Assembly: GCA_002784145.1 (NCBI GenBank)
Contig: PFKE01000065.1
Span: 2,935-66,934, forward strand
Length of the DNA: 64,000 nucleotides
Source of the DNA: Flavobacteriaceae bacterium CG_4_10_14_3_um_filter_33_47
Lineage (GTDB): Bacteria; Bacteroidota; Bacteroidia; Flavobacteriales; Flavobacteriaceae
Direction: 5' to 3'
The position numbers and the translations under genes were made by a program. This document shows, piece by piece, positions 37,432-40,669 of the stretch (its first letter is position 1; every line of letters starts with the position of its first letter). Under the pieces are notes generated by a model. The model searched no databases and was not told the DNA's origin. It saw only the letters and a list, made by a program, of their open reading frames with translations.

Positions 37432-38394
37432 ATGAAAAAAAATATATTATTAATAGTTCTGTTGGTGGTTATAGTTTCATGTAAAAATGATGATCAACTA
37501 GAGTCAGACATTGAAAAAATTCCGATAGACGTTAAGATTGAACGGTTTGATGAATTGTTTGGTAAGGCTAATGAGCAAAATTTGCCAACACTTAAACAAA
37601 ACTTTCCGTTTATGTTTTCAAAAAAATATACAGATTCTTTTTGGATTGCCAGAACTAAAGATACGCTTCAAATTAAATTACTTCAAGAGGTATCTAAAGT
37701 TTACCCAGAAATTAATGAGCAGGAAACTGAAATTAAAGCGCTTTTTCAGCATATAAAATATTATTTTCCCGAATTTAAAGAGCCTAGAATCATTACTACA
37801 ACCTCATTTGTTGACTATAGAAATAGAGTTATTGTTACCGATACCATTTCTTTAATTTCATTAGATTGTTATTTGGGTTCTGATCATGAGTTTTACCAAG
37901 GTATTCAAAAATATATTAGAGAAGATTTTAACAAAAAGCATATGGTTGTTGATTTAGCCTTGGAATATGCCAAAAATTATATATTTCAAGAACCCAATAA
38001 AACCCTTCTGGATGAAATGATTTACTTTGGAAAACAATTGTATTTTTTAGATAAGGTAATTCCTTTTAAAACAGAAGCTGAACGAATTGGCTACACACAA
38101 GAACAATTAGATTGGGCTTTGGCTAACGAAAGTTATGTGTGGCGGTATTTTGTAGAAAGAGAACTTTTGTTTAGCACAGATTCAAAATTACCCGGCAGAT
38201 TTATTAATCCGGCACCATTTACTAAATTTTATTTAGAAGAAATAGACAGCGAGTCACCAGGCAGATTAGGTCAATACATAGGTTGGCAAATAGTAAAGGC
38301 TTACATGCAAAATAATGAGGTCTCATTAAAAAAAATGCTAATGACTTCGCCCGAAGAAATTTTTAATCAATCAAAGTTTAAACCAAGAAAATAA
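37432..38394 (+). CDS. gldB: gliding motility lipoprotein GldB
   Basis: Lipobox VSC; PGRLGQYIGWQIV motif; coupled to gldC. Confidence 0.93.
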   Translation: MKKNILLIVLLVVIVSCKNDDQLESDIEKIPIDVKIERFDELFGKANEQNLPTLKQNFPFMFSKKYTDSFWIARTKDTLQIKLLQEVSKVYPEINEQETEIKALFQHIKYYFPEFKEPRIITTTSFVDYRNRVIVTDTISLISLDCYLGSDHEFYQGIQKYIREDFNKKHMVVDLALEYAKNYIFQEPNKTLLDEMIYFGKQLYFLDKVIPFKTEAERIGYTQEQLDWALANESYVWRYFVERELLFSTDSKLPGRFINPAPFTKFYLEEIDSESPGRLGQYIGWQIVKAYMQNNEVSLKKMLMTSPEEIFNQSKFKPRK

Positions 38395-38729
38395 TGGCAT
38401 CAAAAATTACATCTAAAATTGAGTTGAGTGTTGAGCTTGATGAGAATCGAATTCCAGAAAAATTGTATTGGACAGCCAACGATGGTGGCATAAGCAATGA
38501 AGAGGCTAAAGCTATGATGTTATCGGTTTGGGATTCTAAAACTTTAGAAACCTTACGTATAGATTTATGGACGAAAGATATGCCCGTAGATGAAATGAAA
38601 GTATTTTTTCATCAAACCTTGGTAGCCATGAGTGACACCTTTAATAAAGCTACTCAAGATGAAAAAATGACAGCTACCATGAAAGATTTTTGTGATTATT
38701 TTGCTGAAAAATTAGAGTTGAAAAAATAA
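38394..38729 (+). CDS. gldC: gliding motility protein GldC
   Basis: VELDENRIPEKL.W.A.DGG, LRIDLWTKDMPVDEMK.FFHQ. Confidence 0.95.
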   Translation: MASKITSKIELSVELDENRIPEKLYWTANDGGISNEEAKAMMLSVWDSKTLETLRIDLWTKDMPVDEMKVFFHQTLVAMSDTFNKATQDEKMTATMKDFCDYFAEKLELKK

Positions 38730-38730
38730 A

Positions 38731-39375
38731 TTAATCACTTTTATTGGCATCATTTATTTCTTTATTAAGATGGTCTAAGTATAAAATGCCATTCAAATGG
38801 TCAATTTCATGCTGGAAAATAACCGATGTAAATCCTTCAACAGTTTCAGTATTATCTTCACCATTTACAGTGTCATAAACAATAACAATAGAATAAGACC
38901 TATTATTTAATGTTTCGCTTCTGTTAGGGATTGATAAACAACCTTCTTTATAGGTCTGTTTTTTTTCTGAATAACCAATAATCATTGGATTTAAATAAAC
39001 TTCAAACGGGAAATTTTCTTTGTCAAAGCGTTGAACCCAGACAATATTTTTTAAAACGCCTACCTGTGGCGCTGCAATACCTGCCCCAAGAGACATACTG
39101 TCAGTAACGGTTCTATACAGACGTTTAATAAGACGTATAAGAACTTTATTATTCGGGTCTGGTTTTATATAGCTGCTTTTTGATCGAAGTAAAAGTGAAT
39201 CCCTTTGGTTGGTTATTTTATAAACCCGCATGGGTGATAAGGTGTCTGATGATAAAATCATTTTAACTTCAGACTCGGAAAATGACCCTATATTATTTTT
39301 TAATGGAGTTTTAGTCCCAGAACAGCTAAAAAAGAGAGCCATTACAATAAGAAAACCTAAAATAGTTGTTTTCAT
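38731..39375 (-). CDS. def: peptide deformylase with N-terminal lipoprotein signal
   Basis: GAGIAAPQVG, EGCLSIP and QHEIDHLNG are all intact; MKTTILGFLIVMALFFSC from ATG 39375. Confidence 0.9.
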   Translation of the reverse strand: MKTTILGFLIVMALFFSCSGTKTPLKNNIGSFSESEVKMILSSDTLSPMRVYKITNQRDSLLLRSKSSYIKPDPNNKVLIRLIKRLYRTVTDSMSLGAGIAAPQVGVLKNIVWVQRFDKENFPFEVYLNPMIIGYSEKKQTYKEGCLSIPNRSETLNNRSYSIVIVYDTVNGEDNTETVEGFTSVIFQHEIDHLNGILYLDHLNKEINDANKSD

Positions 39376-39391
39376 AGTTATAACATTAAGG

Positions 39392-40669
39392 TTACCATTC
39401 ATTAATTCTGTTAGAATCTAATTTAATAAAAATAAACAGCAAAATAGTAAAACTCCACAAGCCAGAACCACCATAACTAAATAGAGGCAACGGAATACCA
39501 ATGGTAGGAATTAACCCCATGACCATGCCTATATTAATCATAAAATGCATGAAAATAATACTTGCAACGCCATATCCATACATTCGGCTAAACTGAGATT
39601 TTTGCAATTCGGCTAAGTGCAAAATACGTATTAATAACAATACAAAAAGGATGACAACCATGGCACTGCCAACAAAACCCCATTCTTCTCCAACGGTACT
39701 AAAAATATAATCGGTGTGTTGTTCTGGTACAAATTTGCCTGTAGTACGAGTACCTTCTAAAAACCCTTTTCCTGTGAGTCCGCCAGAACTTATGGCCTTT
39801 TCTGACTCGTTAAGGTTATAGGCAAATGTTTTCTTCATGTTTTCAAGCTTCAACGGATCTTTTTCTAATCGTAACCATAGGCTTATGCGGTCTTGTTGGT
39901 GGGGTTGTAAAATATTTTGATAGAAAAATTTAACACCTGAAGACAGCATTACACAACCAACTAAAATAAGAATGGGTTTAATAAACGATGGCTTTTTTTT
40001 AGTAAAAAAATAGTTTGTAACTATTAAAATACCAGCGGCAATTGAAGTAAAAATAGCTCCAAACTTTAATGAAAATACAGCGAGCAACGTCATGGCAATA
40101 CCAATCATTAAATATATTTTAGGCAACCCTTCTCGGTATAAAACAAAAAAGAAAGCTGCGTAAACAATGGTGCTTCCGGTGTCGTTTTGAAGGAGCACTA
40201 AAATGGCAGGAATGGCTATAAGAATAAAGCATTGTATTTGATCTTTAATCTTATGGATGTCTGTATTTAAATCACTTACATATTTGGCAACAGCTAGTAC
40301 GGTAGCTATTTTAGCAAATTCGCTTGGCTGAATGGTCATGCCTCCAAAGGCATACCATGATGTGGCACCATTGACGTTTTTACCAAATATAAATAAACCA
40401 ACCAGTGATAGCATGGAAATTAAGTATATAATACTTGAAAAGCGTTCGTAAAATTTTGCTTCTATAGATAAAATAATAACAATTAAACCAAGGGTTAGGA
40501 AAATAAATATTAATTGTTTTCCATAAGGCTCGGCAGCATTGAAATAATCGATGGTTTCTCCTGTATGTGAAGCCGATAAAATGTTTAACCAACCAAAAAC
40601 TACTAACAAAAGAAAAATAATGATGGTTATCCAATCAAATTTAAAATATCTATGAGTCTCTCTGTGCAT
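39392..40669 (-). CDS. rodA: rod shape-determining SEDS protein RodA
   Basis: IQPSEFAK, PEQHTDYIF, LPLFSYGGS. Confidence 0.95.
   Translation of the reverse strand: MHRETHRYFKFDWITIIIFLLLVVFGWLNILSASHTGETIDYFNAAEPYGKQLIFIFLTLGLIVIILSIEAKFYERFSSIIYLISMLSLVGLFIFGKNVNGATSWYAFGGMTIQPSEFAKIATVLAVAKYVSDLNTDIHKIKDQIQCFILIAIPAILVLLQNDTGSTIVYAAFFFVLYREGLPKIYLMIGIAMTLLAVFSLKFGAIFTSIAAGILIVTNYFFTKKKPSFIKPILILVGCVMLSSGVKFFYQNILQPHQQDRISLWLRLEKDPLKLENMKKTFAYNLNESEKAISSGGLTGKGFLEGTRTTGKFVPEQHTDYIFSTVGEEWGFVGSAMVVILFVLLLIRILHLAELQKSQFSRMYGYGVASIIFMHFMINIGMVMGLIPTIGIPLPLFSYGGSGLWSFTILLFIFIKLDSNRINEW

Follow-up and report, generated by a model that had tools for sequence, protein, structure and literature searches.

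A putative exported and lipid-anchored peptide deformylase encoded behind rodA in a Flavobacteriaceae bacterium

We analyzed a 64,000-nucleotide stretch of contig PFKE01000065.1 from Flavobacteriaceae bacterium CG_4_10_14_3_um_filter_33_47 (hereafter, the window), which carries on its minus strand a gene for a peptide deformylase (PDF) that appears to be a lipoprotein exported from the cytoplasm. An earlier note on this DNA had described a lipoprotein-type PDF with intact catalytic motifs at this locus, and that description was borne out: the open reading frame (ORF) at 38731..39375 (-) comprises 214 codons and a TAA stop (38731-38733), exactly at the coordinates given there, and all three motifs can be read in the DNA. 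The protein begins MKTTILGFLIVMALFFSC-SGTKTPLKNN, the continuation after MKTTILGFLIVMALFFSC being SGTKTPLKNNIGSFSESEVKMILSSDTLSPMRVYKIT, and it is laid out as MK, a hydrophobic core, an FFSC lipobox, a flexible linker, and a complete PDF domain. Its parts, all read on the minus strand and compared among 81 aligned homologues, are as follows:

38731..39375 (-): complete coding sequence of the putatively exported PDF paralogue, 214 amino acids plus TAA (ORF, translation, Pfam, NCBIfam)
39325..39375 (-): predicted signal peptide of the signal peptidase II (SPII) type, residues 1-17, with n-region MK, h-region TTILGFLIVMALFF, and S at position -1 (homologue conservation, codon statistics)
39322..39324 (-): Cys18, predicted to be the lipidated +1 residue of the mature protein; Cys in 73/81 homologues
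39283..39321 (-): flexible linker, residues 19-31 (SGTKTPLKNNIGS), without acidic residues; predicted local distance difference test (pLDDT) 64-78, length and sequence variable among homologues
39232..39282 (-): clade-specific N-terminal extension, residues 32-48, with conserved F32, I40, and P48 and a helix at 34-41 (alignment, AlphaFold2)
38767..39231 (-): PDF catalytic core, residues 49-203, with M49 matched in the alignment to Met1 of E. coli Def (Pfam, alignment, AlphaFold2, Foldseek)
39064-39087 (-): motif 1, GAGIAAPQ, residues 97-104, with catalytic Gln104; read base by base, with G97, G99, I100, A101, A102, P103, and Q104 invariant in 81/81
38932-38946 (-): motif 2, EGCLS, residues 144-148, with metal ligand Cys146; read base by base, with C146, L147, and S148 invariant in 81/81 and E144 and G145 present in 79/81
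38797-38814 (-): motif 3, QHEIDH, residues 188-193, with metal ligands His189 and His193 and catalytic Glu190; read base by base, invariant in 81/81
38734..38796 (-): short, non-basic C-terminal tail (LNGILYLDHLNKEINDANKSD), where canonical PDFs have a long basic ribosome-binding helix (alignment; AlphaFold2 helix 199-213)

The homologues that lack an equivalent of Cys18 either have a leader of the signal peptidase I (SPI) type or a different start. For the window protein itself, conservation of the frame and leader, together with codon statistics, places the translation start at the ATG at 39375. An alternative upstream ATG at 39402 (MNGNLNVIT-) overlaps rodA and would give a 223-residue form; it is missing from the next relatives (L003, L004), and the same mature protein is predicted from either ATG. 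The earlier note had also named a start downstream of the Cys, at MILSSD, as an outcome that would undo its reading. We rejected this start because its Met is unconserved, being Leu in 70% of homologues, while every homologue keeps the frame ahead of it, signal peptide included. Further downstream, Met49 (codon 39229-39231), kept in 77 of the 81 homologues (95%), could be a relic of an ancestral start or an internal initiation site.

Assignment to the PDF family was straightforward. Pfam PF01327 matched residues 62-215 of the 223-residue form (E 1.4e-34, 119.4 bits, cut-off 22.8), while TIGR00079 was passed only narrowly (106.6 bits against a cut-off of 103.95) and NF001159, at 104.7 bits, fell under its cut-off of 125. 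The three PDF motifs (G-x-G-x-A-A-x-Q, E-G-C-L-S, and H-E-x-x-H) are present along with the Cys and two His metal ligands, and all ligands (Cys146, His189, His193) as well as catalytic Gln104 and Glu190 are invariant across the 81 clade members. The residues aligned with the E. coli S1' pocket (V/A98, F182, V185, and I186) stay hydrophobic. An AlphaFold2 model built from a 58-sequence alignment (pLDDT 93.5, predicted TM-score 0.84) consists of a signal-peptide helix (3-16), a low-confidence linker (17-33), an extra helix (34-41), a PDF core with the expected alpha+beta fold, and a short C-terminal helix (199-213). When this model was compared with the Protein Data Bank (PDB) using Foldseek, all of the best 50 matches listed were PDFs, with E-values down to 7e-14. 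The top matches were type-1b PDFs of Acinetobacter, Thermotoga, and Leptospira (target-normalized TM-score 0.8-0.92), and the best match by sequence in the PDB was the Leptospira PDF 1SV2. We are therefore confident that the modeled protein has the type-1B PDF fold, and we think it fairly probable, by about two chances in three, that it is a genuine deformylase.

The leader fits a PROSITE-type lipobox rule, with K2, an uncharged stretch of at least six residues, and L-F-F-S-C18. All 120 of the closest database homologues (65-86% identical, from Yeosuana, Gaetbulibacter, Flavivirga, Algibacter, Mariniflexile, Tamlana, and others) likewise begin with M-K/R, a hydrophobic core, a small residue, and Cys. 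We then compared 80 genome loci at 42-70% identity, drawn from Flavobacteriaceae, Cryomorphaceae, Saprospiraceae, Lewinellaceae, Cytophagales, Sphingobacteriaceae, and Bacteroidales. At every one of them, the frame is open upstream of the PDF core, through the 48 codons before Met49, and encodes a signal peptide. A strict SPII pattern is matched at 64 of these loci, and at ~7 others a lipobox follows a start that is non-ATG or unusual in some other way. The remaining nine lack the Cys and have an SPI-type leader, and in all nine a Gln stands right after the small-x-small site (LSA/Q, LQA/Q, AFS/Q, LA/Q, MA/Q, VG/Q, and GS/Q, the slash marking the site). A passage in PMC10653852 describes this arrangement as the Bacteroidetes Q-rule, in which Gln follows the cleavage site of SPI-exported proteins. 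The replacement of SPII leaders by SPI leaders with the predicted Gln suggests that export has been kept even where the lipid anchor has not.

Codon statistics also indicate that the leader is translated. Among 19 close relatives, differences per site in the signal peptide were 0.55, 0.34, and 0.56 at codon positions 1, 2, and 3, respectively, and the low variation at position 2 is what preserved hydrophobicity would produce. Residues 32-48 showed a normal coding pattern (0.37, 0.26, and 0.55). The processing machinery is encoded as well: the genome has one match to Lgt (PF01790, 197 bits) and two LspA homologues (PF01252, 112 and 104 bits, at C118:33086-33649 and C121:423-854), so that a Sec/SPII lipoprotein pattern occurs together with the enzymes that would process it. 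Taken together, the sequence evidence makes it highly probable that the protein is truly exported, and very probably it is lipid-anchored too, in line with what the earlier note had proposed.

Which side of a membrane the mature protein would face can be predicted from its first residues. In Flavobacteriaceae, the lipoprotein export signal (LES) is C-X-K-(D/E)2, and periplasm-facing lipoproteins lack it (PMC5080379). The mature N-terminus of the window protein, CSGTKTPLK, has no D or E at positions +2 to +6 after Cys18, and only two of 64 homologues have one there. The protein thus does not resemble a surface-exposed, LES-dependent Bacteroidota lipoprotein, and the absence of the acidic signal predicts a periplasm-facing position, as the earlier note had suggested from the missing acidic patch. 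Two other lipoprotein-like leaders in the window may be mentioned here. A neighboring lipoprotein-like ORF (start 33658) has the same LLFSC box, and the mature N-terminus of GldB, C-K-N-D-D-Q (37432-37490), resembles the acidic Flavobacteriaceae export signal, in contrast to the CSGTKT of the PDF.

The window protein is not the only deformylase of its genome (2.94 Mb, 164 contigs, 97.6% complete), which contains two PF01327 matches. The better match (165.8 bits), on another contig, is a leaderless protein of 196 residues with a long basic tail that adjoins a ruvX-like gene. Its N-terminus reads MILPIVAYGDPVL / MILPIVAYGDPVLKK, and by these sequence features it is the usual Bacteroidota def, the separate canonical gene whose presence the earlier note had wanted confirmed. 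A canonical def (153-185 bits) was also present in all 18 other genomes examined that carry an exported homologue.

The two kinds of PDF differ most clearly at the C-terminus. After the HExDH motif, the exported clade has a median tail of 20 residues with a median net charge of -1, compared to 44.5 residues and +9 in 20 canonical Bacteroidota defs and 32 residues and +6 in E. coli Def; the tail of the window protein has 21 residues and a net charge of -2. In E. coli, it is through the C-terminal region that Def binds the ribosome (Bingel-Erlenmeyer 2008, as cited in a passage of PMC12690207). The window protein has neither the basic docking helix nor the leaderless N-terminus of a housekeeping type-1B Def. 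Without that helix, and with a membrane between it and the ribosomes, the protein as predicted could not act on nascent chains.

We built a tree from 81 exported-type sequences, 20 canonical Bacteroidota defs, and E. coli Def. All 81 exported PDFs fell on one side of a branch, and the 20 canonical defs on the other; this branch has a length of 3.88 changes per column and a Shimodaira-Hasegawa-like approximate likelihood ratio test (SH-aLRT) value of 99. Residues R116, D118, and F187 are invariant in the clade and do not occur in canonical defs; R85, K119, P123-F124-E125, and I191 are clade-specific residues kept in at least 90% of members, and F32, I40, and P48-M49-R50 are conserved in the N-terminal extension. 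Families and even orders are intermixed inside the clade. Its distribution is patchy: an orthologue was found in 35 of 201 genera of the family of the window genome (17%; one genome per genus, E <= 1e-25), and in an evenly drawn sample of 151 genomes from the phylum, all of which have a PDF, only five (~3%) had a match to the window protein below 1e-30. The mixing of taxa and this patchiness suggest gain, loss, and transfer.

Extra PDF genes are more widespread than this clade, with ~35 of the 151 sampled genomes carrying two or more. We asked whether second Bacteroidota PDFs are generally exported and rejected this idea: in 10 other genomes of the sample we examined 20 regions with a second or third PDF, and the intact copies are all leaderless, have ordinary N-termini, and fall outside the exported clade. 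Exported PDFs therefore represent one specific clade. When 1.8 billion proteins clustered at 50% identity were searched, at least 90 of the best 150 representatives had an SPII leader or an SPI leader with Gln by simple rules, and many of the remaining ones are fragmentary or show a visible leader. Two loci from Bacteroidales metagenome-assembled genomes (L078 and L081) and cluster P0122 encode longer exported PDFs of ~390-415 residues, with tandem PF01327 domains behind a lipoprotein signal.

The gene lies between the following neighbors:

39392..40669 (-): rodA (FtsW/RodA/SpoVE family, PF01098), last of the mreB-mreC-mreD-pbp2-rodA string; its stop is 16 nt upstream of the PDF ATG (ORF map, Pfam)
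38394..38729 (+): gldC, running toward the PDF gene, with 1 nt between their stop codons (ORF map, Pfam)

On its gldC side, the PDF gene is met by both gldC and gldB (PF19937, PF25594), which converge on it. A terminator scan revealed no hairpin-like structure between the PDF gene and gldC (38727-38733); with the stops 1 nt apart, convergent transcripts would have to overlap or end inside the neighboring gene. On the other side, mreB, mreC, mreD, pbp2, rodA, and the PDF gene form a tightly packed minus-strand string. The coding strand has no match to the Bacteroidota -7 box (TAnnTTTG) over the final kilobase of rodA, and a sigma-70 scan gave no excess of sites over shuffled sequence (40, compared to 36). 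The tight packing and the missing -7 box make co-transcription plausible, and in this lineage the PDF gene is probably co-transcribed with mreBCD-pbp2-rodA.

The earlier note had linked the gene to the elongasome on the basis of this position. The position itself is as described, directly behind rodA, but the link did not hold beyond one lineage. Across the 80 loci, rodA and pbp2 lie upstream at only 19-21, all of them at least 63% identical to the window protein and all keeping the mreB..rodA-PDF order, and this linkage was seen only in close relatives of the Algibacter/Flavivirga/Mariniflexile type. The other 59 loci have no rodA linkage, so the gene does not behave as a member of an elongasome operon. 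Nor did another partner emerge: when all ORFs of the 80 loci were clustered, no neighbor outside the rodA group recurred in more than five loci, and a Pfam scan of 108 immediate neighbors at the 59 unlinked loci yielded 142 families, none of them more than four times. Because neither rodA linkage nor a recurrent neighbor is found elsewhere, an elongasome role is unlikely, and we rejected it as a general explanation. Judging from synteny, the gene is an accessory, free-standing one that landed behind rodA in one group of genera by accident, and its position there is not evidence of a cell-wall role.

Domain fusions offer some hints to function. Several related clusters fuse the exported PDF to other exported hydrolases or domains:

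P0123: M1 aminopeptidase (a single metagenome-assembled genome)
P0192: S33/S15-type alpha/beta hydrolase (12 contigs)
P0214: AXE1-type esterase (16 members)
P0149: DUF1684 (6 members, including an isolate genome)
P0169: M15 dipeptidase
P0189: metallo-beta-lactamase-fold domain
P0200: class-A beta-lactamase-like domain (3 members)
P0199: DUF3089
P0209: a 706-residue protein whose N-terminal part has no Pfam match (7 members)

Several of these fusions recur across independent assemblies, and one isolate genome is that of Rhinopithecimicrobium faecis. The fusions may hint at peptide or small-molecule hydrolysis in the envelope rather than protein maturation. The earlier note had offered several uses for an exported deformylase, namely scavenging of environmental N-formyl peptides, removal of formyl-Met signals, processing of formylated antibiotics, and titration of actinonin-type inhibitors; among these, the hydrolase partners lend a little support to peptide catabolism alone. 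Removal of host immune signals is unlikely in free-living marine Flavobacteriaceae and Saprospiraceae. Formylated peptides need not come from outside, as membrane and exported proteins escape cytoplasmic deformylation according to passages in PMC12690207 and PMC5454389, and a self-derived pool of such peptides therefore exists in principle. We also considered an exported methionine aminopeptidase as a partner, which would allow N-terminal methionine excision outside the cytoplasm. This candidate found no support: of the three M24 genes in the window genome, the true methionine aminopeptidase is leaderless, and the only exported one is Xaa-Pro-aminopeptidase-like. The latter, at L135:1774-2874 (-) on contig C31, has an SPI-type leader ending ISA/Q, and the match holds one in-frame TAA, which could reflect a pseudogene, an error in the assembly, or two separate ORFs.

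Our preferred explanation, to which we assign a probability of roughly 0.6, is that the window protein is a second PDF working outside the cytoplasm, where it would face the periplasm on a lipid anchor and act on free N-formyl peptides. Sec would export the unfolded chain, and Lgt and LspA, both encoded in the genome, would lipidate Cys18 and cleave before it, as expected from the lipobox. The mature protein, CSGTKT..., would then stay on the periplasmic face of a membrane because it has no LES. There, a disordered linker of ~14 residues would tether a type-1B-like PDF domain in which, judging from the sequence and the model, the metal ligands, Gln104, Glu190, and the hydrophobic S1' pocket are intact. 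With no docking helix and no ribosomes on that side, its substrates would be free peptides instead of nascent chains. The enzyme would most likely cleave the N-formyl group from free N-formyl-Met peptides in the periplasm. These peptides could be taken up from the surroundings or arise from signal peptides and membrane-protein N-termini of the cell itself that had kept their formyl group, and deformylation would unblock them for periplasmic aminopeptidases. Housekeeping deformylation would be left to the canonical def on the other contig.

Several observations weigh against this explanation. The signal-peptide assignment consists of pattern rules and conservation, and the F and F at lipobox positions -3 and -2 are atypical when compared to the classical L-[AS]-[GA]-C box. 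The 95% conservation of Met49, aligned with Met1 of E. coli Def, could reflect an internal start used in addition to the ATG at 39375. The surroundings do not point to a pathway either, as there is no conserved neighbor among the 80 loci and no exported methionine aminopeptidase in the window genome. The patchiness of the clade (35/201 genera; 5/151 genomes) indicates that its function is dispensable. Finally, a changed substrate could lie behind the long branch and the residues that are invariant in this clade alone.

In the last case, the exported, lipid-anchored PDF scaffold would hydrolyze some other small amide or ester in the envelope. Possible targets include N-acyl peptides of a different kind, secondary metabolites or antibiotics that bear a formyl or acyl group, and peptides released from peptidoglycan. 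A changed substrate would fit the very long branch to canonical defs (3.88), the clade's own strictly conserved residues and N-terminal extension, and the presence of esterases, an M15 D-Ala-D-Ala dipeptidase, and beta-lactamase-like domains among the fusion partners. However, every known metal- or formyl-binding residue is invariant, the S1' pocket positions are hydrophobic as expected for a Met side chain, and we know of no PDF-family member with a non-formyl substrate, all of which leaves a changed substrate unlikely, at perhaps one chance in five. Alternatively, the exported protein might bind its ligand with hardly any turnover and serve as a decoy; in the periplasm it could, for instance, soak up actinonin-like hydroxamates and so shield the essential cytoplasmic Def. 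Titration of actinonin-type inhibitors was among the uses proposed in the earlier note, and the intact active site would indeed bind them. Yet across a deep clade the catalytic Gln and Glu are as invariant as the metal ligands, which speaks for catalysis, and the neighborhoods of the loci showed no connection to producers or resistance islands; we find this idea barely credible.

The two remaining alternatives concern where the protein works and with what. As an accessory of the elongation machinery, it would be a periplasmic lipoprotein co-expressed with MreBCD-PBP2-RodA that acts on or regulates peptidoglycan synthesis. The ATG only 16 nt behind the rodA stop, the lack of a TAnnTTTG box in the last 1 kb of rodA, and the gene order kept in all relatives at least 63% identical would suit such a role, but the linkage is absent at 59 of 80 loci with diverse neighbors, and 83% of the family's genera have rodA without such a PDF. 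The synteny is thus explained by common descent in one group of genera, and we consider a general role in elongation very improbable. Initiation at Met49, whether additional or sole, would instead yield a leaderless 166-residue cytoplasmic PDF serving as a back-up or inhibitor-insensitive enzyme, like accessory Def2. Beyond the conservation of Met49 and its alignment with the E. coli start, this idea can draw on PMC12690207, according to which cytoplasmic PDFs of the accessory kind occur commonly and are able to provide resistance to actinonin-type inhibitors. Still, in 80/80 loci the frame runs open through the 48 codons before Met49, which encode a signal peptide; these codons are under coding-type constraint and switch between SPII leaders and SPI leaders followed by Gln, behavior not expected of an untranslated leader. 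The basic ribosome-docking tail is also missing, and randomly sampled second PDFs of the phylum, which are leaderless with ordinary N-termini, lie outside the clade. A cytoplasmic product from Met49 accordingly seems a poor prospect, with odds in the region of one in twenty.

In the textbook view, PDF is a ribosome-docked, co-translational enzyme of the cytoplasm or organelles and an antibiotic target. The window protein shares with canonical type-1B Def (EC 3.5.1.88; E. coli Def, A. baumannii 6JF7, T. maritima 1LME, Leptospira 1SV2) the Pfam family, motifs, ligands, catalytic residues, hydrophobic S1' pocket, and fold, at ~30% identity over structures with a target-normalized TM-score of 0.8-0.92. 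Unlike canonical Def, it has a Sec/SPII signal, a linker, and a 17-residue clade-specific extension, lacks the long basic ribosome-binding helix, and belongs to a separate, long-branched clade. This type of PDF coexists with a canonical def in all genomes checked, and its predicted substrates are free peptides of the periplasm instead of nascent chains.

To our knowledge, the only well-known PDFs with an N-terminal targeting extension, as in the window protein, are the organelle-targeted eukaryotic ones (plant PDF1A/PDF1B and mitochondrial HsPDF). Their transit peptides bring them to the matrix or stroma, which contains ribosomes and is topologically like the bacterial cytoplasm, and there they act on nascent chains. 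By contrast, the compartment predicted for the window protein has no ribosomes. Phage PDFs (Vp16 PDF; Synechococcus phage S-SSM7 3UWA) share with it a minimal core without a long C-terminal helix, and 3UWA was among the best structural and sequence matches; phage enzymes, however, have no signal peptide and act in the cytoplasm of the infected cell. Accessory PDFs such as Def2 on integrons and mobile elements (PMC12690207) are likewise extra genes beside an essential one, with a patchy distribution suggestive of gain and loss. They are cytoplasmic and discussed as back-up or resistance enzymes (PMC12690207), whereas the window PDF is predicted to be exported. The text of that survey (Mol Biol Evol 2025, PMC12690207) makes no mention of a lipoprotein, of any term beginning with Bacteroid, or of an exported PDF, and we found no description of an exported or lipoprotein PDF in the searchable full-text literature. 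The main additions made here are the negative result for rodA, the interchange of SPII leaders with SPI leaders followed by Gln, the tail statistics, and the list of fusions.

Extended beyond the window, these observations tentatively suggest, at somewhat less than even odds, that many Bacteroidota have extracytoplasmic deformylation, in which a clade of lipid-anchored or soluble periplasmic PDFs unblocks free formyl-Met peptides for degradation and recycling by aminopeptidases. Such peptides could come from decaying bacteria or organelles, or from the cells' own signal peptides or membrane-protein N-termini. If confirmed, a large and conserved clade of exported PDFs would give deformylation a second, post-translational arena. 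If the reading is true, this would be the first PDF working away from the ribosome and a new turnover route for environmental N-formyl peptides. Confirmation would also bear on the recycling of N-blocked peptides and on nutrient use by marine and gut Bacteroidota, on the behavior of PDF inhibitors in Bacteroidota with exported PDFs, and on the fate of formyl peptides, which are bacterial signals recognized by animal innate immunity.

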